57,171 nt of DNA. Origin: Bacteroidales bacterium UBA6340 (lineage in GTDB: Bacteria; Bacteroidota; Bacteroidia; Bacteroidales; Paludibacteraceae). This document shows, one piece after another, positions 2 to 50,262 of the stretch; positions within the stretch are counted from its first letter, which is position 1, and each line of letters begins with the position of its first letter. The notes under the pieces were generated by a model. The model made no database searches, was not told the DNA's origin, and saw only the letters and a program-made list of their open reading frames with translations. Where the stretch lies: NCBI GenBank assembly GCA_002440265.1, contig DJSG01000031.1, forward strand, positions 1 to 57,171, given 5' to 3'. Position numbers and translations under genes: made by a program.

Positions 2-709
2 ATCATATACACCGTCTTGTGTCAGTGTAAACGAGACTGATTTCAACGTATCAGCAGGAGTCAGACCTTCCGTAGTAATGTTGAGTGTACCCAAAGCGAC
101 AGATGTCTTGTTGGCATACACAGTACTTTCCACGTCGCTATAATCGGCAATGGCTGAGGTTACTTTCAGCGGTTTGGCTTCTATCAGGCTGACTGTTGCT
201 TTCCAGCCCTTGCTTTGGTACGGGTCTTTGAAATAGAAACAGCAGGACAAGTCTCCGGTAGCATCTGTAGAAGTATAAGTTTGGTTGGCAAATGTACCAT
301 GCAAGGTAGCGAGTAACTTATCCGTTGCGGGGAATTTGTAAGAGGCAGTTACTCCAGAACCGGATGTAGGGTAAGTAACGCTGGTGGTGTCAAAAACGCC
401 ATTATAGATATAGAGTTTGGCATCATAGGAATCACTATATGGCTTTACCTCGAATTCTTCAAAGTTAATAGAAACGGCATACCCCTTTTCTGCCGACTTG
501 AAAATCGTAGTGGCAAACGAGTTGTTGGTACCGCCGGTATTCATACTTTCGGTACCTTTGTAGTCATAGAAAGTAATCGGGTTGTCCTTTTCCACCAAGA
601 CGACCTGTTTACCAAACTGGGGCATTAGCACGTCTTCGGCGTGCGCCCCGAGCGGGATGAGGGGTAGGAGACCCAACAGCCCTGCTAATAAAAAGGATTT
701 CTTTTTCAT
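2..709 (-). CDS. secreted protein, N-terminal 236 codons (gene continues beyond the left edge)
   Basis: Hand translation gives an ATG at 709-707, and the frame stays open down to position 2. The N-terminus MKKKSFLLAGLLGLLPLIPLGAHAEDV is a signal peptide. It is missing from the ORF track only because no stop codon lies inside the window. Confidence 0.7.
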   Translation of the reverse strand, partial: MKKKSFLLAGLLGLLPLIPLGAHAEDVLMPQFGKQVVLVEKDNPITFYDYKGTESMNTGGTNNSFATTIFKSAEKGYAVSINFEEFEVKPYSDSYDAKLYIYNGVFDTTSVTYPTSGSGVTASYKFPATDKLLATLHGTFANQTYTSTDATGDLSCCFYFKDPYQSKGWKATVSLIEAKPLKVTSAIADYSDVESTVYANKTSVALGTLNITTEGLTPADTLKSVSFTLTQDGVYD

Positions 710-1252
710 ATTTATATTTAGTTATTCTTAGTTACTCTTTGCTACTTCCTTTGTCATCCTCCGAATGCAAGATAACATCATACCCATTATTCTGTTGCAT
801 ATATGCACAAAAAAGCCGCTTGACACACGTCAAACGGCACAGATAGCACTACCGACTCCCCCTGCCCCCTCAAAGAGGGGGTATCCCAATACACTACATG
901 CCCCTCCTATGGAGGGGTTGGGGAGGTCTTGTCTTATGCTTTTTCCTCGAAAGCCGTTTGACGAACGCCATTGGCAGGTCTTCTGACTCGTTTGCTCTGC
1001 GGCGTCTTCCCATTGGAGTCGTCCTCCAACAGTGACTTGTTTGCCACAGAGTGCAATTACAACATTTGCTGTCACGACGCGAGCCGCGTCGTCTCTCATC
1101 TGTGCATTGCCTAAAAAAACTTACAGCAGCGGGACTGTCCGGGATTTGCACCCGATTCCCTTTTAATGTCTTGCGTGATAAATGCAAGCCAACCAACACG
1201 TTTATTTCATACATATCTGCCTTGCGGCAGGTTCTCCCACGGGAAAACGGTG

Positions 1253-1260
1253 CAAAGGTA
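1253..1260 (-). promoter_or_regulatory. Bacteroidetes -7 box TAccTTTG (minus strand)
   Basis: Plus-strand caaaggta within ggtgcaaaggtactac. It matches the extended local consensus GTACCTTTGCACC and points toward the gene starting at 709. Confidence 0.4.
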
Positions 1261-1303
1261 CTACAAGTTTCCGAATTGCACAAATAAAAGGACAAAGTTT
1301 CAG

Positions 1304-1602
1304 GGCAACCGCATCAAAATTACAATATCAATAGTATGCTTTTGAAAAAACAAGTGTAACATTTCTATGCAAAATGGTATTCGTACTTAACGACGCGGGA
1401 CGCGTCGTCCCCATAAGCACAGCAAATCCATTCAGTTTGTGCCCAACTGCCCGCGGATGAGGAGAGCACCACGCTACGTCCACTGAATTGAAGAACCGCG
1501 GACGAGGGCGTCCGCGCGTCCCCGGCAATGCCATCTTATGGCAAAAAAACTAATAATGCGTTCTTACAATGCATAAACATGTGAGTATTTGATGCGGTTG
1601 CC
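1304..1602. repeat. 299-bp segment bounded by 15-bp perfect inverted repeats (MITE-like or invertible)
   Basis: ggcaaccgcatcaaa at 1304-1318 is the reverse complement of tttgatgcggttgcc at 1588-1602. The interior holds two GC hairpins (1390-1408, 1497-1516) and the motif gtttgtgcccaactgcccgcgg, which is also present at 18866-18887. An arm-like copy, ggcaaccgcataaaa, lies at about 35590. Confidence 0.4.
1315..1322 (-). promoter_or_regulatory. -7 box TAatTTTG straddling the left inverted-repeat arm
   Basis: Plus-strand caaaatta. The TTTG half lies inside the repeat arm and the TAAT half lies inside the bounded segment. Confidence 0.3.
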
Positions 1603-1655
1603 ATGTACCAACATCCATTTTCATATTTCTTTTTGCGCACATGCAAAAATTGTTG

Positions 1656-1663
1656 TATTTTTG
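1656..1663 (+). promoter_or_regulatory. -7 box TAttTTTG
   Basis: tgtatttttgcagcg resembles the gltX promoter (tatatttgcagcg). It sits 420 nt upstream of the next CDS at 2086. Confidence 0.4.
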
Positions 1664-2085
1664 CAGCGCAAAGGCTTATGTTGGGGATAGTTGGGGCGGG
1701 AATGGCTGAGTGCAACCGTGGCTGTTGCCCGTAGCAAACGGGTATCGGTTGTGTGTGTACGCAGTTGCTACCGCGACAATAACGCCCTGCACAAGGAGTC
1801 TTTGCACATATATTGTTATTAAACGGCGTTTATCAGCGCTTGTTTTGGTGGTTTGAAATCCGGAAAATTTCCTCACCCAAAACAAGAAGTGCAGTAAACG
1901 CCCATGGGTGTGTACTATGTACACCATTTTGGTGTATATCTGCATACCGGCGTGGGCGTTATTGTTTGTTCTTGTGAAAGGGTCATTTCCGGAACCTCAA
2001 ACCAGAGAATGAGCAAGGATAAGGGTTCCACGCTTGTTTTTATGTATGGGTTGGTAGGAACCGCCACCCGCAAAACATCAATACA

Positions 2086-2553
2086 ATGAACAAACGATTT
2101 ATCTTGTTTGTATGTCTGCTGTGCAGTTTTCCGCTCATGGCAGACCGACTGACGGTTCAGCACAAGTACTTTGGTACTGACCGTACGGAAGACATTGCCG
2201 CTATCGGCAAGTGGGTCTTCGTGGACGACCGCGTCCAACTGCTTGACCACAACGGGTATCTGTTGGGAGAAGAGTACATGGAAAACATTATCAAAATCAC
2301 TTTCTCCGAGACATCGCCTGTGCCCACCTCCATAGACGGTGCCCGGTCCGGTACGGTCATTGTCTATCCCAATCCTACGCATGAGATGCTCTGCGTGCAA
2401 GGCGTGCCTGACGACACCACCCTGCGGGTGTACTCCACTACTGGGCAGTTGCTCACCACAGCGCAAGGGACAAAGATAGATGTCAGTCACCTGCCACAAG
2501 GTACGTATCTGCTGCAATTAGGGATACAGGTAATAAGGTTTATTAAGGAATAA
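2086..2553 (+). CDS. small secreted protein with a T9SS C-terminal sorting domain
   Basis: Signal peptide MNKRFILFVCLLCSFPLMA. The C-terminus VIVYPNPTHEMLCVQG...LRVYSTTGQLL...VSHLPQGTYLLQL matches the Por_Secre_tail pattern. Confidence 0.75.
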   Translation: MNKRFILFVCLLCSFPLMADRLTVQHKYFGTDRTEDIAAIGKWVFVDDRVQLLDHNGYLLGEEYMENIIKITFSETSPVPTSIDGARSGTVIVYPNPTHEMLCVQGVPDDTTLRVYSTTGQLLTTAQGTKIDVSHLPQGTYLLQLGIQVIRFIKE

Positions 2554-2849
2554 GACCTCCCCTAACCCCAGACCTCCCCAACCCCTCCAAAGGAGGGGCT
2601 CGACGGAAAAGGGACAGGTAAGTCGAATAAGGCTAATGGGGCTAATAAGTCTAATGAGACTAATAACAACTACAAATAACAACAAACAAATCCTCTCTAT
2701 TGAGCCCTCCTGTCGGGGTCCCCGTAAGCCCGTGGGCGAAACGGGGTGCTCTCGGAGGGGTTGGGGAGGTCTAACAAATGTATAACAATTAAACAAATCC
2801 TCTCTGTTCTCCCCTCCTTTGAAGGAGGGGCCGGGGGAGGTCTAGAATT

Positions 2850-3914
2850 ATGAAGAGATTTATTTTATTGGCGACTATGTTCGCCGTTGTATTGGGCGTG
2901 AGTGCCCAACGTCGTATGCAGGTGTGGGAAGGAAACACCTACATGCAGTTTTTCACCACCAATGTGGATAGTGTAACATTCTTGTCGTTCCCTGAGGGTA
3001 TTCTGCAGGAGTGCGAAGAGATACACGATACTATCATCAAGACCATCACGGTGCGCGATACCGTTACTCTCACTGTGCGTGATACTATCACAAAGACGAT
3101 AACCGTGCACGATACCATTACCCAAATCGTGAAAGATACAGTGTACATCCAGTATTGTCCCGATACCGTGTCGGATAAGCCTCTGGTCGGTGCGTTCTCG
3201 GTAAGTGCTACCAAACAGGTGCGTTTCTCTCGTGGCAATCTGCAGTACACACAAAGCACACAGACATGGTCGTTTGCCAAACACCAATACGATATGATAG
3301 GAGAAGCAAATGTAAGTGGTAGCAGTTTGGCTGACAAAATAGACTTATTTGGTTGGAGCGGTGATTTTATTAGTAGTACCCCTTGGGGAATAAGCGCTTC
3401 CACAATTTACACTGTATATCGGGGTAACTTTGTTGATTGGGGTACAAATATCGGTGATGGAAAAACATGGTACACATTGACTGATGAAGAATGGAAGTAT
3501 TTACTTCACCATAATGGTGGTTGTGGTGTAGCACGTATTAATCTCAACACAGATGGTACAGAATATGTCAATGGTCTTATCCTACTTCCTGACACATGGA
3601 CTTGCCCAGAGGGAATGACTTTCAATGGTGGCGTTTCCAAAACAAATAGCATACAGGCTTATGCTGATCACCAAACGTTCACTCGTGCTGATTGGCAAAA
3701 GTTAGAATCTGCGGGTGCAGTTTTCCTGCCTGCTTCTGGTCACCGTGACGGTTCTAACGTGAATGATGTGCAGGACTATAGTCTCTATTGGTCTGCAACG
3801 CCTGACGGAAGAGACCGTGCATACTTCCTGTACTTCCGCTCATCTGAGGTGTACACAGATTTTCTTCTCCTTCGCTATGTTGGACGAGCAGTCCGTCTCG
3901 TCCAAGATTTATGA
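2850..3914 (+). CDS. secreted/lipoprotein with DT[IV]T repeats and a FISUMP/DUF1566-like C-terminal domain
   Basis: Signal peptide MKRFILLATMFAVVLGVSAQ. Repeats TITVRDTVTLTVRDTITKTITVHDTITQIVKDTV. The tail FSRGNLQY...WYTLTDEEWKYLL...LPASGHRDG...YWSAT...GRAVRLVQD fits the FISUMP-type pattern as I remember it. Confidence 0.7.
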   Translation: MKRFILLATMFAVVLGVSAQRRMQVWEGNTYMQFFTTNVDSVTFLSFPEGILQECEEIHDTIIKTITVRDTVTLTVRDTITKTITVHDTITQIVKDTVYIQYCPDTVSDKPLVGAFSVSATKQVRFSRGNLQYTQSTQTWSFAKHQYDMIGEANVSGSSLADKIDLFGWSGDFISSTPWGISASTIYTVYRGNFVDWGTNIGDGKTWYTLTDEEWKYLLHHNGGCGVARINLNTDGTEYVNGLILLPDTWTCPEGMTFNGGVSKTNSIQAYADHQTFTRADWQKLESAGAVFLPASGHRDGSNVNDVQDYSLYWSATPDGRDRAYFLYFRSSEVYTDFLLLRYVGRAVRLVQDL

Positions 3915-3963
3915 TTAAGTTTTCTTTTATTCTCATTATGATAATTTATAAACACATCAAATT

Positions 3964-5028
3964 ATGAATATATCAATTTTATTAGGAGCGGGATTTTCAG
4001 TAGCCGCAGGGTTTCCCACTGCAAAACAATTATCAGAGAATATTGTGAATGCATCAAGTCTGAATTTCTGTATATACGCTGGTAATTTATGCGAACGACC
4101 AGAGTCTATTCCTTACCGTAAAGTTTTAATGAAACCTTTCGAAAACTTGTTAGCCCTCATCCATTTTTATTCGTATCTTCATTGTAACCATTTCGATTAT
4201 GAGCATTTTTATGACTTTTATTGGAAAATACGGGGCATATCCGACCTTTTTGCAGGAGAAGAATTGGATATGAGGATAAAGGAAATCAATGACTTATATC
4301 AAAAATTAGTATGTTTTTATTTGGATAAAGCCGATAAAATGGCTAAACAATATACTGAATATTACGAACATTTCAATTCTTTTGTGCGAGATTCTGCACA
4401 GAGGGATATGGTTTATATCCATACCTTGAACCATGATACATTGTTGGAACAAATGTTAGACGGGCAATATAGCGACGGTTTTTCCACAACAGGTTCACTG
4501 TTTCATTGCAACGAGCATGATATTCAAATGTTTTCCGAGAGTAACTATCAAGGCAATATACTACTTTACAAGTTACATGGCAGTTTAGATAGATACCTTT
4601 ATACCTACCAAAATGACTTTTCCAAACATAAATACATCAAGATTCCCCTGCAAAGTGGAATTGATATAGAGGACATAAGAAATTTGAATGATATAGATAA
4701 ACCATGCTTACAATGCCTAATTCCAGATTTTTTGACAGGAGCAACGACAAAGATACGACGATATAAAGAACCTTTTTATGCGTCTATGTTTGAATGCTTT
4801 GCGAAAAATCTTCAAAATTCTGATACGATATACATTATTGGGTATGGAGGTCATGATAATGAAATCAATAAATATTTATTAACGCATGCAAGAAGTAAGC
4901 CAATCTACATTATAGACCCTTTTCCAAATAATGAGTTACAGAGATTATCCGACAAGTTAGGAACTAATTCGCGTATCATTCCTAAAACTATAAAAGAATG
5001 CGATGTTGCTTTGCTACATACCTCTTAA
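3964..5028 (+). CDS. SIR2-like protein (SIR2_2/PF13289-type), stand-alone
   Basis: Ordered motifs ILLGAGFSVAAGFPTAKQL, TLNHDTLLE, LYKLHGSLD and IYIIGYGGHDNEINKYL match the remembered SIR2_2 signature (GAGxS..G.P, TxNxD, LHGS, iGYS..D). The gene is about 32-37% GC on hand-counted lines. Confidence 0.8.
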   Translation: MNISILLGAGFSVAAGFPTAKQLSENIVNASSLNFCIYAGNLCERPESIPYRKVLMKPFENLLALIHFYSYLHCNHFDYEHFYDFYWKIRGISDLFAGEELDMRIKEINDLYQKLVCFYLDKADKMAKQYTEYYEHFNSFVRDSAQRDMVYIHTLNHDTLLEQMLDGQYSDGFSTTGSLFHCNEHDIQMFSESNYQGNILLYKLHGSLDRYLYTYQNDFSKHKYIKIPLQSGIDIEDIRNLNDIDKPCLQCLIPDFLTGATTKIRRYKEPFYASMFECFAKNLQNSDTIYIIGYGGHDNEINKYLLTHARSKPIYIIDPFPNNELQRLSDKLGTNSRIIPKTIKECDVALLHTS

Positions 5029-5104
5029 AGTTTCAAATACATCCCCCATATTGTATTGGATACTAAATTCTTCTTTCAAAGAGCAGCATAATTGGGAAAT
5101 AAGG

Positions 5105-5141
5105 AGACTGTCTAACAAGTTGTATTAGGCAGTCTTTTTTA
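5105..5141 (+). terminator. rho-independent terminator after the SIR2-like gene
   Basis: A 10-bp stem, agactgtcta / taggcagtct (one G-U pair), with an 11-nt loop, followed by tttttt. Confidence 0.7.
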
Positions 5142-5689
5142 TGATGCCATTTGTGATTGTAGTTTATATTAAGTTATTACTGTCTGGTAAAAGTGTTGTT
5201 ACAATGGTACGCCAGATATTGATGTACTATTATCGACTTATATGTCTTCCATGTAGCTATAGAATGGCTCTAAAATGAGTGATTAAATGGAAAAATATAT
5301 ATCTACAGCAATCCGCAACTTGCGCTTTTTGCGTAGGAGGGCTCGCTTTTGCAAAAATACATACCAATATGCCCTTTTATGGGCATTTGGAAGGGACTTT
5401 TCTTCTTTGGGCTGTGTTTACCGGACAGCAATAATATTAAGTTATCAGCAAAAGCAACTAACTATGGGAACAAAGTCGTGCTAACATTTCTATAAAATAA
5501 CGGAGCACTCGCATATAAATTAAAATGCAACTTTTGTTAAGATAGCCATTTTCGAAAAAGTGTAGGGAAAGTGGTGAAAAAATGAAGATTTTTTGGTATT
5601 GAGTGTCAGCAGGTTACAAGCCAAAAATGCAAAATGCACCATTTTGGCGAAAAAACGAAAATAAATTTGGATTTTGGACGATTTTGTAT

Positions 5690-5697
5690 TATCTTTG
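5690..5697 (+). promoter_or_regulatory. -7 box TAtcTTTG (distal clpP promoter)
   Basis: ttgtattatctttgtat. Confidence 0.4.
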
Positions 5698-5777
5698 TAT
5701 TCGGATTAGGAGTGGTAGGCGGGTATTGAGGGGGACAGGCAACAGGGAGGGTACTTGTGCACCTCGATAAAAATGCG

Positions 5778-5785
5778 TAACTTTG
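5778..5785 (+). promoter_or_regulatory. -7 box TAacTTTG (proximal clpP promoter)
   Basis: gcgtaactttgcgg, 109 nt upstream of the clpP ATG. Confidence 0.5.
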
Positions 5786-5893
5786 CGGGGCGAATAGTGC
5801 CGCGAAGCGATGCAAGTAACGTAAAATAGCAACATAAAAAACAACGTAAAAGCAACATAGCAGCAACGTAAAACAACGAAACAAGACAAGATA

Positions 5894-6556
5894 ATGACAA
5901 ACGATTTTCTCAAGTTCGCCGTAGCGAACGGACTCAATTCCATGCACGTGGAGCAGACCATACAGGCGTCTGCCAACTATATCAGCCCGTCCATATTGGA
6001 AGAGCGGCAACTGAATGTCACGCAGATGGACGTGTTCTCGCGTCTGATGATGGACCGCATCATCTTCCTCGGCACCGAGGTCAACGACTACACAGCCAAC
6101 GTGATTCAAGCCCAACTGCTGTACTTGGACTCGGCTGACTCGGACAAAGACATACACATATACCTCAATTCCCCCGGCGGTTCCGTATATGCGGGCTTGG
6201 GTATCTACGACACCATGCAGTTTGTGCGCTCGCGCGTAGCCACGATATGCACGGGTATGGCGGCATCCATGGGTGCGGTACTGCTCGTAGCGGGCGAGAA
6301 AGGTATGCGTGCCGCGCTGCCCCACAGCCGCGTGATGATACATCAGCCGTTGGGAGGCATACAGGGACAGGCTTCGGACATCGAGATTACCGCCAAGGAA
6401 ATCCTCAAACTCAAGGACGAACTATACCAGATTATCTCCGACCATTCGGGGCAGAGCATGGAGCGTATCCGTCACGATGCCGACCGCGACTACTGGATGA
6501 AAGCCAACGAAGCCCTCGAGTATGGTATGATAGACAAAGTGTACGAGAGGAAGTAA
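5894..6556 (+). CDS. clpP: ATP-dependent Clp protease proteolytic subunit
   Basis: [20 protein letters not shown] and MIHQPLGG catalytic-region motifs. It is followed by clpX. Confidence 0.97.
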
Positions 6557-6768
6557 GGGGGTGTTCTTTTAATTGCTTTTTGAGTGATTTTTGAGTTTTT
6601 TGGTTAGTAGATGCGCGACTTGAGCAAAGGAGCAATGCGGGCATTGTGACTGAGCGAAAGCCTCGCAGATACAAGCAAAAAACAAAAAGCACCAAAAAAG
6701 TGTTACAACACCCTCACATTTGTAAAATTTTAAGTTAAACGGGGAATTAATAGAACACCCCCTATAAT

Positions 6769-8019
6769 ATGGCAACAAAGAAGAAAGAACAGGCCGTCTG
6801 CTCGTTCTGCGGTCGCCCTATGCCGCAGATGTTCAAGGGCGAGGACGGGGCATATATATGTCAGGAGTGCATAGAGGCGGGGCATCAGATGATTCAGCAG
6901 ATGAATCAGCACCAGACGCAGCACCCCGAAGTGGAGGGATTGGACCTGGCGCACCTGCCCAAGCCAACGGAAATCAAGGCTTTCCTCGACCAATATGTTA
7001 TCGGTCAGGACGAGGCAAAGCGTTACCTCTCGGTGGCGGTGTACAACCACTACAAGCGTATCCTGCAGCCGCGCGAGGAGAACGGCGTGGAGATAGAGAA
7101 GTCCAACATCATCATGGTGGGCTCGACAGGTACGGGTAAGACACTGTTAGCCAGAACGATAGCCAAGATGTTGGCGGTGCCCTTCACGATTGTGGACGCC
7201 ACCGTGCTTACCGAAGCCGGCTACGTGGGCGAGGACGTGGAGAGCCTGCTCACGCGCCTGCTGCAAGAGGCGGACTACGATGTGAAGAAAGCGGAGAAAG
7301 GCATTGTGTTCATCGACGAGATAGACAAGATAGCACGCAAGTCGGACAACCCGTCCATCACACGTGATGTGTCCGGCGAAGGCGTACAGCAGGGCTTACT
7401 CAAACTATTGGAAGGGTCGATGGTGAACGTACCACCCCAGGGAGGACGCAAACACCCTGAGCAAGAATTCATTCATGTCAATACACAGAATATACTGTTC
7501 ATCTGCGGCGGAGCCTTCGACGGTATCGAACGCAAGATAGCACAACGCCTTAACACACAGGTAGTTGGCTTTGATGCCGCACAAAAGACCAAGCAGGTGG
7601 ACAAGAGCGATTTGCTGCAGTATATCGCACCTCAGGACTTGAAGTCGTTTGGTTTGATACCGGAAATCATCGGGCGTCTGCCTATCTTGACCTATCTCAA
7701 ACCGTTGGACCGCGATGCCCTGCGCAATATCCTCACCGAGCCCAAGAATGCCATCACCAAGCAGTATCAGAAACTGCTGGCTATGGATGGCGTATCCCTC
7801 ACTTTCGACCGCGATGCACTCGACTATATCGTGGACAAGGCGATTGAGTACAAACTCGGGGCCCGCGGACTGCGCAGCCTGACCGAAACCATCATGATGG
7901 ACGTGATGTACGAAGTGCCTGCCGACAAGAGTATCAAGGAGTTTCATGTCACTCGTGCACTCGCCGAGGAGAAATTGTCACGCATCAACCCGCTGACCCT
8001 GCAGGCATCACAAGGATAG
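6769..8019 (+). CDS. clpX: ATP-dependent Clp protease ATP-binding subunit ClpX
   Basis: N-terminal zinc finger CSFCGRP...CQEC, Walker A GSTGTGKT, and FIDEIDKI. Confidence 0.97.
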
Positions 8020-8031
8020 CCGTTTTGCTGT

Positions 8032-10851
8032 ATGTTCGCCATCCGCAGGAGAATACAAGTAGTTTTCAGTCTGCTGTTTATCACGATAGCGATATATGCG
8101 GACTGGACACCTGTGGTGCGGCATTTCACGCCCAACGACTATGGCGCAGGCACGCAGAACTGGGGCATTGTAGAGCAGGCAAACGGCTGGATATATGTTG
8201 CCAATAATTACGGATTATTGGAGTTTGACGGCAGCCGTTGGTGTCTCTATGGCATCAGCAATTCCACGGCAGTTCGCTCAGTGGCACGTGGTGCCAACGG
8301 GGACATCTATGTGGGCGGGACAGATGAGTTCGGTGTGTTCTCGCCCGATGCCTATGGGGGGCTGACCTATCGCAGTCTGTCTGACAGTCTGCCGGTGCGC
8401 TATCGGCAGTTTGGCGAGGTGTGGAAGATACATATTGCCGAGAATGCGCTCTATATACAGTCACGCAACTACATCTTTATCAACGACTTGCACGGGCACA
8501 CCGAAGTGATTGATGCGGGGGCGGTTGTCTATGCCTCTGTTCTCGTGGACGGCAATCTGTATGTGGCTACTTCGCGTGATATCTATGTGCTCAATGGCAA
8601 CCGTCTGCATGCCTTGCGGGGTGCGGAGGGATTGCATGGGGCGGTGGTGAGTGCTATGCTGCCCTACCGCGAGCACGGTGTGCTGATTGCTACGGACTTT
8701 CGGGGGGTGTACCTCTATGACGGTGAGCAGATACGCCGATTCAAGACCGAAGCAGATAACTATATCGTTGCCAACCAACTATATACGGTAGCAGCAGGTG
8801 AACATTGCCTGGCGTTTGGCACAGTACGTAAAGGCGTGGTACTTACCGACTTGGATGGAAAGCATTGTCGTTATATGACGCGTGAAGACGGGTTGCAAAA
8901 CAATACCGTACTCAGTATGCTTTTCGACAGCCGCGACAATCTATGGATGGGATTGGACAACGGCATGGATATGATGTCCTCTCTGGCACCGGTGATGTAC
9001 TGGCACGACAAGGACATTGATTACGGTTCGGGCTATACGGCTTGTGAATATCAAGGTACATTGTATCTCGGCACCAATCAGGGATTATACGCTGTCCGCA
9101 AAGGCTGTCCGGAGGGGAGTATGTGTCTTGTTGAGGGCAGCCTCGGACAAGTATGGAGCGTGGCTGAGGTATGTGGCACGTTGTTCTGCTGCCATAACAG
9201 AGGACTATTTACGGTACAGCACAACCGTCTTGTCCCCATAGAGACGGGCGATGGCGTGTGGAGCGTGAAACCATTGTCAGACAACGAGGCTATTGCGGGT
9301 AGTTATGCAGGGTTTTACTACCTCAGCAAGCAGGGCGGTATATGGAAAATCAGGCACTTGGACGGCTTCGCAGCGACTTCCCTCTATTATGAGACTGATG
9401 CTGCTGGGCATATCTGGTTGTTGACCTCACAGGGTGTGGAACGCCTGGCTATAGACAAGAGCAACTATCACATTGACAGCGAATTGGTAATTCCCCAACC
9501 GGCTGCCGAGCGTACCTATTCTCTGGCACGCCTGCAAGATGAAGTATGGCTCACATCCGACAACTACTGTGGCATTATCGGTGCAGACGGTATCCTCCGT
9601 GCAGATAGTTTGCAAGCCGACCAGTTGTCCGGTACACAACGTTATATTCTGCTGACAGAGGACTATGCCGGCAACATCTGGTATATGTACAACGGGCGGT
9701 TCAAAGTCAAACCTTTTGATGCCTCTCGTCAGACGTATGGTGTATCGCGCGAGTTGCTCCATAATCCCGACCTGCTTATCGGCGGTTTTGCCAATATCTG
9801 TTTTCTGTCCGACGGGGATGCCGTGATTGGCGGTGTGAACGGCTTTTTCCGACTGAACGGAACGGCTACATCGGTGTCTCCACACTCCGAAGCACTCTAT
9901 ATACGCAGTATCAAGACGCTGCAGCCCAAGCCTGCGGTGGTATACGGCGAGTCCTATCCGTTGCGCACACATTCATTGACTCTGCCGGCGGATGTCTATT
10001 CGCTGCAAGTGCAGGTATGCGGCAGTGATGTTACCCGGGAGCGGGTGCTTTACCGCACGCGGCTCACACCAACCGAACAGGAATTTACAGAGTGGAAGAC
10101 CACTCCTTCACGCGAGTTTATCGGTCTGCAGTCAGGGAAATACAACCTTGATGTTGAGATGCTAACGCGTGATGACACCATTCTTTCGCGCACATTGCCG
10201 ATTGAAATAGAGACACCATTCTATCAAACAATATGGGCAAGGCTCATCTATATGTTTGTCCTACTTCTGTTGATGTTGTATATCTCGTGGCGCATCTATC
10301 GCCATGTGCAAGCGGGTAAGCAGCGTATCGCGCAGGAGAAAAACGAAGAGATACGGCAGCAGCAGTTGCGTATCTTGCAATTGGAGAACGAGAAAGCACA
10401 GTACGACCTCCAAAACAAGAGTCGGGAACTGAGCAACGCCCTGCTCAACGAAGCCAACCGAAAGGAGTGGAATCAGGAGATACTGAGCGAGATACGCCGT
10501 ATCGTGGATTGTATGAACAGCGATCGTCTCGTCGAAGCCAAAGGACGTATGCAGAATCTCCAGAACCGTCTCTCGCGCAATGGCGAGACCAACGTGGACT
10601 GGAAACGGTTTGAAGAGAACTTCGATATGGTGAACAACCATTTTATCCAACGCCTGCAAGAGCAGTACCCATGGATGAGCAAGCAGGAGCGCAAACTATG
10701 TGTCTATATCAAGATGGGCTTGATGACCAAAGAGATAGCCCCGTTGATGAACATCACCGTCCGCGGCGTAGAGATGATGCGCTACCGCCTACGCACCAAG
10801 ATGAACCTTGACTCCCAGACCAATCTCAGCCAACTGCTAAACACCTTGTGA
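8032..10851 (+). CDS. sensor/regulator with beta-propeller repeats, a Y_Y_Y domain, a TM helix and a LuxR-type HTH
   Basis: Reg_prop-like repeats (GTQNWGIVEQANGWIYVANNYGLLEFDG). Y_Y_Y-like segment YRTRLTPTEQEFTEWK...GKYNLDVEM. TM helix IWARLIYMFVLLLLMLYISW. C-terminal LTKQERKLCVYIKMGLMTKEIAPLMNITVRGVEMMRYRLRTK. Confidence 0.85.
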   Translation: MFAIRRRIQVVFSLLFITIAIYADWTPVVRHFTPNDYGAGTQNWGIVEQANGWIYVANNYGLLEFDGSRWCLYGISNSTAVRSVARGANGDIYVGGTDEFGVFSPDAYGGLTYRSLSDSLPVRYRQFGEVWKIHIAENALYIQSRNYIFINDLHGHTEVIDAGAVVYASVLVDGNLYVATSRDIYVLNGNRLHALRGAEGLHGAVVSAMLPYREHGVLIATDFRGVYLYDGEQIRRFKTEADNYIVANQLYTVAAGEHCLAFGTVRKGVVLTDLDGKHCRYMTREDGLQNNTVLSMLFDSRDNLWMGLDNGMDMMSSLAPVMYWHDKDIDYGSGYTACEYQGTLYLGTNQGLYAVRKGCPEGSMCLVEGSLGQVWSVAEVCGTLFCCHNRGLFTVQHNRLVPIETGDGVWSVKPLSDNEAIAGSYAGFYYLSKQGGIWKIRHLDGFAATSLYYETDAAGHIWLLTSQGVERLAIDKSNYHIDSELVIPQPAAERTYSLARLQDEVWLTSDNYCGIIGADGILRADSLQADQLSGTQRYILLTEDYAGNIWYMYNGRFKVKPFDASRQTYGVSRELLHNPDLLIGGFANICFLSDGDAVIGGVNGFFRLNGTATSVSPHSEALYIRSIKTLQPKPAVVYGESYPLRTHSLTLPADVYSLQVQVCGSDVTRERVLYRTRLTPTEQEFTEWKTTPSREFIGLQSGKYNLDVEMLTRDDTILSRTLPIEIETPFYQTIWARLIYMFVLLLLMLYISWRIYRHVQAGKQRIAQEKNEEIRQQQLRILQLENEKAQYDLQNKSRELSNALLNEANRKEWNQEILSEIRRIVDCMNSDRLVEAKGRMQNLQNRLSRNGETNVDWKRFEENFDMVNNHFIQRLQEQYPWMSKQERKLCVYIKMGLMTKEIAPLMNITVRGVEMMRYRLRTKMNLDSQTNLSQLLNTL

Positions 10852-10878
10852 ACGCAACGTTGAACTGACTATCACTCA

Positions 10879-11997
10879 CTATTGTTTTTTCAGTGCGTTT
10901 ACCAACATACCGCAGGCTGCAAGGATGTCTTCTCCACGGCTGCGGCGTATGGTGGTGGTGAGACCATGAGCGGTCAGGTAGTCGCGCAGCCACTCCATCT
11001 GACGCTCATTGCTTGAGGGAAAGGTGATTTGGTTCTCCCTGTGCGACACCTCTTCCACACCCGCATGAAAGCGTATGAGGTTGATGCGGCAGTCCAATCC
11101 GCGGAGCAAGCGCAGGAGTTCATTGGCGTGCTTGGGTGTGTCGTTCACTCCTGCCCAGCAGATATACTCGAAACTGACACGGCGTTGGTGCTGCCAGTCG
11201 TATTGTTTCAAGAGGGTAACCACCTCGGAAAGAGGGTATGCCTTCTCTATAGGCATAATGGCTTGACGTTCTACACCAAACGGATTGTGCAGTGAGACAG
11301 CCAGATGGCAGTCGCACTCCTCGATATAGCGTTTGAGTGCGGGTACAATACCTACCGATGACACCGTGATACGTTTTGGGGACCATGCGCAGCCCCATGC
11401 GGCAGTCATCACTTGCAACGAGCGCAACACATTGTCGAGGTTATCCATAGGCTCCCCCTCGCCCATATAGACGATGTTGGTCAAAGGACCGACCCCTCCA
11501 AGCCCCCCCAGATGGGGGGATGACAAAACGGAGGCACTTTGTTTGTTATTAGATAGTTTGGGGTTGTCGGAGGTCAGGGGGAAATAGAGAATCTGGTTCA
11601 GTATCTCGGCGGCAGGCAGTTGTCCGTGAAAGCCCAATGTGCCTGTCATGCAGAACTTACAGCCCATCTTGCAGCCCGCCTGCGTGCTGACACATAGTGT
11701 AGCGCGGTCGTTATCCGGTATATAGACAGACTCTATATACTGCTCGCCCACTTGGAAGAGGTACTTGTGCGTGCCGTCTTCCGACACGGCTTCCGCCACC
11801 GGCGCATGGCGGCCGATGGTGTACTTCGCCCGCAGTGCTTCCCTACCGCGCAGTGAGATATTGGTCATCTCATCGAAAGTAGTGGCACGGCGCACGTACA
11901 GCCATTCCGCCAACTGCTTACCGGCAAAACGCGGTAGCCCTGCATCCAGGGCTACCGCTTGCAATTCCTCTAATGTGAGACCCAAGAGGCTTACCAT
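10879..11997 (-). CDS. rlmN: 23S rRNA/tRNA adenine-C2 methyltransferase RlmN (radical SAM)
   Basis: [11 protein letters not shown] radical-SAM cluster, MGEGEP, and [11 protein letters not shown]. The start overlaps the glyA stop (ATGGTAA). Confidence 0.93.
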
Positions 11998-13271
11998 CCG
12001 AACAACGGATACTGTGTCATCTCACGATTTACCTCCTCGCGAACCTTGGCGATATTGGCTTCACATTCAGGGTTTTGGAGTACGGTGTCAATCAAGTCCA
12101 CAATCCATGGCATCTTGTCTTCTTTCAGTCCGCGTGTGGTGATGGCAGGTGTGCCGAAACGCAGACCACTGGTCTGGAAAGCGGAACGGGAGTCGAAAGG
12201 TACCATATTCTTGTTGGTGGTGATGTCGGCAGCCACAAGTGCTTTTTCGGCAACCTTGCCTGTCAAATCAGGATACTTGGTGCGCAGGTCCACCAACATG
12301 GAGTGATTGTCCGTGCCACCAGAGATAATCTTGTAGCCCTTCTGTATGAATGCCTCTGCCATTACCGACGCATTCAACTTCACTTGCTGCTGATATACTT
12401 TGAATTGCGGTTCGAGAGCCTCGCCGAAAGCCACCGCCTTGGCAGCAATCACGTGCTCCAACGGTCCGCCTTGCACGCCCGGGAAGACAGCAGAGTCAAG
12501 CAATGCCGACATCATCTTTATCTCGCCTTTCGGGGTTGTCTTGCCCCATGGGTTGGGGAAGTCTTTGCCTACCAGTATGACACCGCCACGGGGACCGCGG
12601 AGGGTCTTATGGGTTGTCGAGGTAACAATATGCGCATACTTAACCGGATTCTCCAGCAGTCCTGCGGCAATCAGACCTGCGGGGTGAGCCATATCCACCA
12701 TAAAGATAGCACCTATCTCGTCAGCCACACGGCGGATACGTGCATAGTCCCACTCGCGGCTGTATGCACTTGCCCCTGCAATAATCAGTTTGGGCTTCTT
12801 CTCGCGTGCCACTTGCTCCAGTTGGTCATAGTCCACACGCCCCGTGTCCTCGCGCAGGTTGTATTCCAACGCATGGAACATGATACCCGAAAAGTTGACA
12901 GGCGACCCGTGCGAGAGGTGCCCGCCATGGCTCAGGTTCAAGCCAAGGAAGGTGTCGCCTGCCTGCAGGCAAGCCATAAACACAGCCATATTAGCCTGTG
13001 CGCCCGAGTGGGGTTGTACGTTCACATACTCAGCCCCGAAGAGTCGGCGGAGCCTGTCGCGTGCAATGTTCTCGCTCTGGTCCACCACTTCGCAACCGCC
13101 ATAGTAGCGTTTTCCCGGGTAGCCCTCGGCATATTTGTTGGTAAGTACGCTTCCCATGGCTTCCATCACTTGGTCGCTCACGAAGTTTTCACTGGCAATC
13201 AGTTCGATGCCTTTTGTCTGACGTTCCCGCTCACGGCGGATGATGTCAAAAATCTCTACGTCTCGAGTCAT
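11991..13271 (-). CDS. glyA: serine hydroxymethyltransferase
   Basis: Full-length SHMT-like protein with the [15 protein letters not shown]-lysine motif. Confidence 0.97.
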
Positions 13272-13320
13272 GTTCGTTCGATTATTTAGTTTTTAAGGTT
13301 GTGCATTGTCATTTGCGGCA

Positions 13321-13328
13321 CAAAGATA
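13321..13328 (-). promoter_or_regulatory. -7 box TAtcTTTG (glyA promoter)
   Basis: Plus-strand caaagata within gcggcacaaagatactgctttt. Confidence 0.5.
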
Positions 13329-13355
13329 CTGCTTTTCCATGAGATACACAAACAC

Positions 13356-13499
13356 AATGCGCAATGTGCAATGCGTAATGCACCATGCCATTTATATTGA
13401 CGGCTCAATCACATACTAATCACATACTAATATCATACTCTTAACCCGATATGAAATCGGGTTAAGAGTAGTAATAGGTAATGGTTAATAGTTAATGTG
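13356..13499. repeat. composite module: AATGCNN heptamers, 11-mers, a 13-bp hairpin, then TAAT heptamers
   Basis: 5 x AATGCNN (13356-13390). gacggctcaatc. 3 x aatcacatact (13407-13439). Perfect hairpin ctcttaacccgat/atcgggttaagag (13438-13468). gtaatag/gtaatgg/ttaatag heptamers (13469-13499). Confidence 0.85.
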
Positions 13500-15953: not shown

Positions 15954-16026
15954 TCGAGAAGAGGCGACTCGAACGCCCGACCCCCACGTCCCGAACGTGG
16001 TGCGCTACCAACTGCGCTACTTCTCG
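15954..16026 (-). tRNA. tRNA-Pro (anticodon CGG)
   Basis: Hand-folded cloverleaf: acceptor CGAGAAG/CTTCTCG, D-arm GCGC-AGTTGGTA-GCGC, anticodon arm CCACG-TTCGGGA-CGTGG, T-arm GGGCG-TTCGAGT-CGCCT, discriminator A. No encoded CCA. Confidence 0.9.
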
Positions 16027-49908: not shown

Positions 49909-49981
<73 letters not shown>

Positions 49982-49991
49982 CAAGGAGGAA

Positions 49992-50016
49992 AGCAGGACC
50001 ACGTTCCTGCTTTTTT
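49992..50016 (+). terminator. terminator-like hairpin between tRNA-Gly and tRNA-Leu
   Basis: Stem agcagga/tcctgct followed by tttttt. Confidence 0.4.
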
Positions 50017-50028
50017 ACTCTGAATGCA

Positions 50029-50110
50029 GCCCGGGTGGCGGAATTGGTAGACGCGTACGTTTCAGGTGCGTATGTCGCGAGGCGTGCAGGTTCGAGTCCT
50101 GTTCCGGGCA
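50029..50110 (+). tRNA. tRNA-Leu (anticodon CAG)
   Basis: Acceptor GCCCGGG/TCCGGGC, anticodon arm TACGT-TTCAGGT-GCGTA, long variable arm, T-arm GCAGG-TTCGAGT-CCTGT. Confidence 0.9.
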
Positions 50111-50175
50111 CAAGAGTGGTCTTACACATCGGTTTCTCCGCGATGTAATGTCGTGAGAGTGATATTCCGATGAAT

Positions 50176-50262
50176 GCGCAGGTGGTGAAATTGGTATACA
50201 CGCTACTTTGAGGGGGTAGTGGTCGCAAGATCGTGTGAGTTCGAGTCTCATCCTGCGCACCA
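50176..50262 (+). tRNA. tRNA-Leu (anticodon GAG), CCA encoded
   Basis: Acceptor GCGCAGG/CCTGCGC, anticodon arm CTACT-TTGAGGG-GGTAG, long variable arm, 3' ACCA. Confidence 0.9.

Follow-up and report, generated by a model that had tools for sequence, protein, structure and literature searches.

The 57,171-nucleotide (nt) stretch of contig DJSG01000031.1 from Bacteroidales bacterium UBA6340 (assembly GCA_002440265.1; the whole stretch is called the window here) carries, upstream of clpP, a gene for a single-domain SIR2_2 protein. We read this open reading frame (ORF), with about even confidence, as encoding a working, horizontally acquired, and self-regulated effector of abortive infection that would consume nicotinamide adenine dinucleotide (NAD+) to counter phages or other mobile DNA. 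Depletion of NAD+ by SIR2 domains is a well-established stop on phage replication in infected bacteria. From homology and neighborhood, we infer that the protein has this catalytic chemistry and a defense role.

3964 to 5028, plus strand: SIR2 gene (ATG start), encoding a single-domain SIR2_2 protein of 354 amino acids (aa), a putative NAD+ glycohydrolase

The SIR2 gene and its active site

An earlier reading made from the letters alone (the sequence-only reading) had proposed here a 354-aa SIR2_2 ORF with the hallmark motifs in order and with no fused sensor or effector domain, and both points were borne out. Pfam reported SIR2_2 (PF13289) above its gathering score (29.7 bits versus 24.5; E = 8.2e-7; aa 152 to 308) and no second family at E values of ≤0.1. 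The motifs GAGFS (aa 8 to 12), TLNHD (aa 154 to 158), KLHGS (aa 203 to 207), and IGYGGHD (aa 292 to 298) occupy columns that are invariant or nearly so among 29 aligned relatives; G8AGFS12, N156, D158, K203LHGS207 (including H205), and G293Y..D298 were retained by all 29 family members. The best PADLOC match was Aga_SIR2 PDLC02414 (E = 1.7e-16), and Aga_SIR2 PDLC02408 (Class II) matched near full length (E = 2.4e-15; aa 3 to 325); the PADLOC SIR2 models ranked after Aga_SIR2, with E values from 6e-13. The NCBIfam equivalog NF042942 (SIR2_antiphage), which we take to stand for HerA-linked SIR2, gave 21.6 bits against a cutoff of 500 and covered aa 2 to 37 only. The SIR2 protein has no signal peptide, unlike its exported neighbors.

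A confident AlphaFold2 model built from the 29-sequence alignment (predicted local distance difference test score [pLDDT], 89.3; predicted template modeling [TM] score, 0.88) comprises a Rossmann-type domain with a long helical insertion (aa 57 to 145) and β-hairpin insertions. A Foldseek search of the PDB with this model returned 163 matches at E values of ≤0.001, and the 50 best listed were all of the sirtuin fold. SIR2 subunits of SIR2-HerA (Nezha) came first (E = 1e-11; TM score, 0.55 to 0.60; identity, 17 to 20%), followed by KomC (E = 2e-6) and then by the canonical sirtuins SIRT2, CobB, and Sir2A (E of about 1e-5; TM score of about 0.4). At the level of the predicted model, a sirtuin fold with a Rossmann large subdomain and a helical small subdomain is thereby confirmed. 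A single-protein sequence search of the PDB gave only chance matches to TRAP1, and the family profile was needed; it matched SIR2-HerA sirtuins only (E = 6e-11 to 3.5e-6) and aligned N156 with the asparagine of TTNYD and H205 with the histidine of K(I/L)HGS in the solved structures. The catalytic Asn and His expected from the letters are therefore in place, by both profile search and predicted structure. Judged from the Pfam and PADLOC matches, the AlphaFold2/Foldseek fold, and the residue alignment to SIR2-HerA sirtuins, the protein is a SIR2_2 enzyme whose active site is complete and to which no sensor is fused.

Sirtuin-fold enzymes also include protein deacylases and ADP-ribosyltransferases, and SIRT2, CobB, and Sir2A do appear among the weaker Foldseek matches, so that a housekeeping or regulatory sirtuin with no defense role has to be weighed. 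We consider this very improbable. The canonical matches are far weaker than those to defense SIR2 proteins, and at E values of ≤0.1 Pfam reported PF13289 alone, not the SIR2 family of canonical deacylases (CobB/SIRT). Moreover, SIR2_2 proteins are without the zinc module needed for deacetylation (PMC12700824); the family alignment holds no invariant cysteine column. The gene is also accessory, AT rich, and absent from the sister species, and its relatives occur in defense islands and prophages, as described below.

The gene is compositionally foreign: its GC content is 0.337, compared with 0.51 for the rest of the window, and 300-bp windows stay at 0.32 to 0.36 from about position 3900 to about position 5700. 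The low GC content of gene and islet was thus read correctly from the letters; the value of 53 to 62% given for the flanks was slightly high, as flanking genes have 0.50 to 0.55 and their 300-bp windows reach 0.58 (0.50 to 0.58 for the right-hand core genes). Low GC content as the mark of an islet stands as a sign of foreign composition but is not special to this locus. The SIR2 gene lies below its flanks in 71 of 74 loci (mean, 7.6 points), and the AT-rich islet look is thus a trait of the family. The gene is under purifying selection, with a ratio of nonsynonymous to synonymous substitution rates (dN/dS) of 0.14.

History of the locus upstream of clpP

The variable segment around the SIR2 gene contains the following features.

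2086 to 2553, plus strand: gene for a 155-aa protein with a type IX secretion system (T9SS) C-terminal sorting domain (Por_Secre_tail, E = 1.8e-9), here the T9SS-tail gene
2850 to 3914, plus strand: c1, exported FISUMP-like protein of 354 aa with signal peptide MKRFILLATMFAVVLGVSAQ and weak Fib_succ_major/TIGR02145 matches
3915 to 3963, plus strand: c1-SIR2 spacer of 49 nt
5029 to 5893, no strand assigned: AT-rich noncoding stretch of 865 bp that replaces the native clpP upstream region (GC content, 0.33 to 0.36 up to about 5700)
5105 to 5140, plus strand: intrinsic terminator of the SIR2 gene, with arms at 5105 to 5115 and 5125 to 5135 (11-bp stem), a 9-nt loop, and T6 at 5135 to 5140
5662, 5690, and 5778 (5662 to 5785), plus strand: TAnnTTTG boxes, candidate clpP promoters in islet-derived sequence
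5894 to 6556, plus strand: clpP (CLP_protease), the first core gene that is conserved, marking the right-hand end of the variable segment

Eight same-species metagenome contigs (96 to 99.8% identical) have the order T9SS-tail gene, c1, SIR2, spacer, clpP, and clpX. The 113-kb contig ERZ27300193 k119_158444 matches the window at 99.84% identity. All eight recovered contigs carry the SIR2 gene, none lacking it was found among them, and a metagenome scan for more close relatives gave one further identical locus only. ClpP shares 90% identity with the ClpP of Paludibacteraceae metagenome-assembled genomes (MAGs). In the sister species (L097 to L106), ClpP is 98% identical, DNA identity is about 83% from clpX to SHMT, and the downstream synteny is kept; upstream of clpP, however, lie genes for a dCMP deaminase, an S41 peptidase, BrkB, and an SDR protein, with no SIR2 gene. 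By blastn, homology to the sister species sets in at position 5890, leaving 4 nt ahead of the clpP start codon; in more distant relatives, the place upstream of clpP is taken by SecDF and a Big_2 protein. The comparison of clpP-upstream regions, which the sequence-only reading had singled out as informative, thus found the gene throughout the recovered strains and missing from this place in the sister species, and the locus can be regarded as accessory on the basis of these alignments.

The FISUMP-like gene, c1, which the sequence-only reading left outside its islet (3915 to 5700), is not a flanking core gene. The C-terminal domain of c1 (aa 107 to 354) is 58% identical to the product of the gene directly upstream of a 67%-identical SIR2 gene in L015, a Bacteroidales MAG, and the DNA is colinear across the c1-SIR2 junction (window 3315 to 4949 with L015 9323 to 10986). 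c1 was not found upstream of clpP in the sister species; the T9SS-tail gene, present in the same-species contigs L001 and L094, was likewise not upstream of clpP in L097 to L106. Furthermore, the window differs from L001 at synonymous sites by 0.034 in SIR2 and 0.017 in c1, compared with 0.08 to 0.16 in clpP, clpX, and the gene for a 939-aa regulator. c1 thus travels with SIR2 and, in our reading, arrived together with it. Pooled synonymous divergence is 0.025 for the islet and 0.089 for the adjacent core (Fisher P = 2e-6), and this difference indicates, as far as sequence divergence can tell, that the islet was exchanged more recently than the core.

c1 and SIR2 are probably cotranscribed. 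The 49-nt gap had been described as free of a TAnnTTTG box, and indeed no perfect plus-strand box lies between 3432 and 4785; a 7-of-8 match, TAAGTTTT, does occur at 3916 to 3923. A terminator-like hairpin lies at 3880 to 3905, within the 3′ end of c1. The strong terminator assigned to the SIR2 gene from the letters held up, with a folding energy of −23.4 kcal/mol (z = −4.2); all 200 shuffles folded less well.

The gene-free, low-GC stretch up to clpP was also described correctly; it measures 865 bp, and its GC content is low to about position 5700. Across strains, positions 5029 to 5172 are 99.3% identical, and positions 5173 to 5893 are about 91.5% identical with many gaps. An antitoxin-like small protein was considered for this spacer and rejected, since its sole ORFs (51 and 65 aa; 5279 to 5484) are frameshifted between same-species strains. 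No Rfam family reached threshold in 5029 to 5893, and at E values of ≤1 over 4900 to 6000 only chance-level matches to mir-14 and alpha_tmRNA appeared. For partner-gene remnants, we ran tblastn with all close-relative neighbors, an unfiltered profile hidden Markov model (HMM) of c10 (a gene found after SIR2 in relatives, described below), phmmer with five further downstream proteins, and blastn at word size 7; neither 5029 to 5893 nor the rest of the window gave anything above noise. When the 44 window proteins were scanned with PADLOC and Pfam, no strong match to HerA, prokaryotic Argonaute (pAgo), TIR, or STAND emerged. These scans reported helicase-type (DpdF, PsyrT, and Cas3-like models), BrxH-like, subtilase, and QatD-like matches plus housekeeping genes; the QatD-like match is probably the TatD-type DNase reported by Pfam.

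Several further observations concern this part of the window. The same-species contigs L001 to L005 have 175 extra bp (L001 3278 to 3451) at window positions of about 5165 to 5172, with an 8-bp duplication, TATATTAA, on both sides and imperfect terminal inverted repeats (ACGTCAGTTCGAT...). A 212-bp insert at 6557 to 6768, between clpP and clpX, has perfect 11-bp terminal inverted repeats (GGGGGTGTTCT and AGAACACCCCC); the window and L094 carry it, whereas L001, L002, and the sister species lack it and have only 3 nt between clpP and clpX. The 212-bp insert looks like a miniature transposable element splitting the clpPX operon, and the 175-bp insert looks like a second element resembling a miniature inverted-repeat transposable element, polymorphic within the species. 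Positions 5650 to 5729, spanning two TAnnTTTG boxes, match L015 15317 to 15392 at 82.5%, and positions 13407 to 13449 match the clpP-upstream region of the sister species (L097 5754 to 5796) at 93%; these patches may be shared promoter-type or repeat elements. Farther away, a cobalamin riboswitch (956 to 1212, minus strand; 79.9 bits; E = 4e-18) lies upstream of a minus-strand ORF ending at the left window edge, one tRNA gene lies at 15954 to 16026 (minus strand), and a cluster of three lies at 49909 to 50259 (plus strand). The rest of the window is housekeeping (topoisomerase, SRP54-type GTPase, sigma-54, YajC, SHMT, and an RlmN-type radical-SAM protein).

The family, its neighborhoods, and rival explanations

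When 1.84 billion representative proteins were searched in full with an HMM, 323 protein clusters were recovered at E values of ≤1e-30 and 1,364 at ≤1e-10. Single-domain architecture is the norm in this family, since 148 of the 150 best clusters (228 to 472 aa) are matched essentially end to end, the other two having an N-terminal extension; members at E values of ≤1e-30 are nearly all single-domain proteins of 340 to 470 aa. With at least 323 clusters of such proteins, the gene is not a rare one. A word-indexed search gave 479 homologues, and a scan of one genome per species gave 107 relatives, mainly in Bacteroidota; the closest copy in species-representative genomes has 67% identity.

No conserved neighbor of the family's SIR2 genes emerged when four genes on each side were clustered in 79 genomes. 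Immediate neighbors in relatives include type I restriction-modification S subunits, BrxL, McrBC, Abi_2, CAP12/Pycsar TIR, PD-T4-6 kinases, PDC-S35, and DUF6119. In L037 and L042, SIR2 follows a type I specificity-subunit gene, and a 992-aa gene common to both lies two genes further on. Besides, five family members are on IMG/VR viral contigs, two of which carry a 416-aa member in a phage moron position (L114 7926 to 9176 and L117 7929 to 9179), between head-maturation-protease-like and tape-measure genes within the structural module. In Bacteroides/Phocaeicola genomes, a family member is followed by a second, divergent SIR2_2 gene, giving a tandem sirtuin pair (second gene at 11196 to 12482 in L055, L065, and L086, 428 aa, and at 11196 to 11789 in L056, 197 aa).

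As to how a self-regulated effector might work, we favor regulation within the protein on the precedents of bAgaS, the SIR2-HerA dodecamer, and the ThsA, Avs5, and FAM118 filaments. bAgaS, a stand-alone SIR2_2 protein, depletes NAD+ via N155 and is toxic without its Argonaute (PMC10620215). The SIR2 of SIR2-HerA alone is an auto-inhibited dodecamer, inactive without its partner (PMC11472057), and filament formation is required for the activity of ThsA, Avs5, and the single-domain FAM118 sirtuins (PMC12700824). By analogy, the SIR2 protein would be held inactive as an auto-inhibited homo-oligomer until an infection cue acts on the protein itself and alters its assembly state; N156 and H205 would then hydrolyze NAD+, and growth of the infected cell would halt. 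The trigger and the oligomeric switch in this scheme are conjecture by analogy, and the NADase activity and the phage phenotype are those that the family's homology would predict.

Several points weigh against such a self-sufficient effector. The Pfam score is just modestly above threshold, and our literature search found no activity, oligomeric state, or phage phenotype for any family member; it also found no described stand-alone SIR2 system and nothing specific on PDC-S32. Both of the closest characterized relatives are partner dependent (HerA activates SIR2, and pAgo restrains bAgaS), and no such partner is present in the 57-kb window; this covers 57 kb of the genome, and a partner may be encoded elsewhere. 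The five closest lineages, in which SIR2 is 56 to 67% identical, each have another gene 2 to 23 nt after SIR2 that is missing here, and the window copy may thus be incomplete. Finally, the repeated link of SIR2 with exported-protein operons is left unexplained by a self-regulated NADase. The description of the gene as stand-alone is accordingly right for the protein architecture and for the window locus but does not extend to these five lineages, in which the gene after SIR2 is as follows.

L007/L008 and L015: c10, 214 to 215 aa, PDC-S32-like
L010 and L014: a 300-aa protein with two transmembrane segments (2-TM)
L011: a zinc-ribbon protein of 200 aa

The main rival, which we consider unlikely, is an orphaned effector. 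The window gene would have started out at the head of a low-GC cassette of two or more genes, in which a PDC-S32-like or 2-TM partner followed SIR2, within an operon for exported caspase-like proteases; with that partner lost in this lineage, SIR2 would now be inert or dependent on a partner in trans. The genes adjoining SIR2 downstream in the closest relatives point this way, as do the low GC content shared with SIR2 by the c10 genes (0.33) and the L014 2-TM gene (0.37), the 865 bp of equally AT-rich noncoding DNA that follows SIR2 here, and the inactivity of the SIR2 of SIR2-HerA without its partner. The searches described above, however, detected no partner trace in 5029 to 5893 or in the window, and the ORF, intact and with a terminator of its own, shows constraint in its dN/dS and is carried by every recovered same-species contig. 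The downstream gene varies among the close relatives, so none is obligatory, and the wider family is mostly without a conserved neighbor. Besides, c10 of L015 matches the PADLOC single-gene candidate PDC-S32 (E = 3e-24), suggesting an independent neighbor and not a subunit.

In four of the five closest lineages, SIR2 lies inside operons for exported caspase-like proteases. The gene orders, together with that of a more distant relative (L035), are as follows.

L015, operon at 7173 to 13385: 224-aa protein, DUF4384 protein, and c1 (all with signal peptides), SIR2, c10 (215 aa), signal-peptide CARDB-caspase
L007, operon at 2162 to 11265: fn3/Lcl_C lipoprotein, SIR2, c10, two small genes, c1-like gene, caspase, 479-aa exported protein
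L010 (operon at 247 to 5338) and L014: SIR2, 2-TM 300-aa protein, caspase
L035, operon at 6388 to 11149: 224-aa protein, 288-aa protein, Sel1-CARDB-caspase, SIR2 (32% identical)

The recurrent signal-peptide operon thus consists of 224-aa, DUF4384, FISUMP/Lcl_C-like, CARDB-caspase (Peptidase_C14), and 480-aa proteins, with the low-GC cytoplasmic SIR2, PDC-S32-like 215-aa, and 2-TM 300-aa proteins embedded in it; we know of no described system with this composition. Furthermore, in six lineages (L016, L027, L028, L038, L043, and L069) the gene directly upstream of SIR2 on the same strand encodes an exported trypsin-like peptidase (Trypsin_2), in each case with a signal peptide and in some with MORN repeats, and CARDB-caspases lie at most two genes from SIR2 in four lineages; both sets are scattered over the family tree. 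The link with trypsin-like peptidases may reflect function or a preferred insertion site.

One explanation of this company is that SIR2 serves as the cytoplasmic output of a system whose partners are the exported FISUMP-like protein or the caspase-like or trypsin-like proteases, so that a surface or periplasmic event would lead to NAD+ depletion. The c1-SIR2 junction is indeed kept at 58% (c1) and 67% (SIR2) amino acid identity, with a spacer of 46 to 72 nt and no perfect promoter box, and the protease neighbors recur across the tree, all with signal peptides, SIR2 being without one. Nevertheless, we hold this explanation to be improbable. No transmembrane element that would join the exported proteins to SIR2 is apparent at the locus, the neighbors are unrelated in most family members, and the protease enrichment is an impression and not a statistic. 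In the operons, moreover, SIR2 and c10 have GC contents of 0.31 to 0.36, far below those of the exported-protein genes (0.44 to 0.57), and on this ground they look like a foreign cytoplasmic cassette sitting in variable surface-protein loci. An equally small chance is given to the stronger form of the idea, in which c1 and SIR2 would be one module of an undescribed class of SIR2_2 NADases wired to exported caspase- or trypsin-like proteases and lectin-like surface proteins, with an envelope event such as phage adsorption or damage triggering NAD+ depletion.

If the family does defend alone, as the self-regulated reading holds, infection would be sensed through the sirtuin fold or its assembly state, as FAM118 sirtuins appear to do, and a minimal SIR2 immune protein would be defined. 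Both the class of enzyme and its probable output are well known; the questions that it raises concern infection sensing by a minimal SIR2 and its company with exported proteases. Bacteroidota, human-gut and rumen lineages among them, are where the family is concentrated, and their defense repertoires are far less tested than those of Proteobacteria and Firmicutes.

Comparison with named SIR2 systems

To our knowledge, every characterized defense SIR2 is an enzyme fused to or paired with a sensor (HerA, Argonaute, SLOG, STAND, or a large C-terminal domain). The statement in the sequence-only reading that no named system fits was upheld for SIR2-HerA, BPAS, Thoeris, DSR1/DSR2, and Avs5, each of which failed on its defining partner or architecture. 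Judged by its fold and active site, the protein would nonetheless work as they do.

SIR2-HerA (Nezha; e.g., PDB 8uae, 8sub, 8j4u, 8w9l, and 8yhx) is the best structural match. Its SIR2 subunits are of similar size (340 to 430 aa) and have two subdomains, and the catalytic Asn and His and the GYG..D motif align with those of the SIR2 protein. Identity, however, is only that noted for the Foldseek matches, and no HerA gene adjoins the SIR2 gene here; HerA was absent from the matches of the 44 window proteins listed down to an E value of 2.4e-15 and did not recur among 108 immediate neighbors of relatives.

bAgaS of the long-B Argonaute systems (BPAS; PADLOC Aga_SIR2 Class II) is the best sequence-profile match, near full length, and is likewise a SIR2_2-only protein, of about 310 to 340 aa by the PADLOC profile lengths. 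Its catalytic asparagine, N155 (PMC10620215), corresponds to N156 here. The bAgaS gene shares an operon with that of a long-B pAgo, and this pAgo acts on bAgaS as both restraint and activator (PMC10620215), whereas no long-B Argonaute adjoins the SIR2 gene in the window and no Argonaute model is among the PADLOC matches listed for the 44 window proteins.

ThsA (Thoeris), DSR1/DSR2, and Avs5 share with the SIR2 protein the SIR2_2 catalytic domain, with NAD+ depletion as their output. They carry fused sensors, namely, SLOG or Macro in ThsA, a large C-terminal domain in the >1,000-aa DSR1 and DSR2 proteins, and a STAND NTPase in Avs5. The protein studied here, in contrast, has one domain in 354 aa. 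PADLOC ThsA matched its SIR2 part only (E = 1.9e-4), with no TIR gene among the listed window matches; the model shows the sirtuin fold alone, unlike DSR1/DSR2; and the Pfam and PADLOC scans of the protein gave no NTPase domain, unlike Avs5. In the case of Kongming (KomABC), the KomC structures match weakly (E = 2e-6; query TM score of about 0.4), and no adjoining gene could be KomA or KomB.

Like the window protein, the vertebrate proteins FAM118A and FAM118B have a SIR2_2 sirtuin domain that lacks both a zinc module and a fused sensor; they differ in being eukaryotic and of a distinct clade, and they are not among the top 50 Foldseek matches. Their NAD processing is controlled by self-assembly into filaments, and both paralogues are needed together for activity (PMC12700824). 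FAM118 is the best precedent for how a partner-less SIR2_2 protein might be regulated. Taken together with the family survey, these comparisons indicate that the window protein is best placed within a large partner-less branch of defense-type sirtuins and does not represent a new kind of system.

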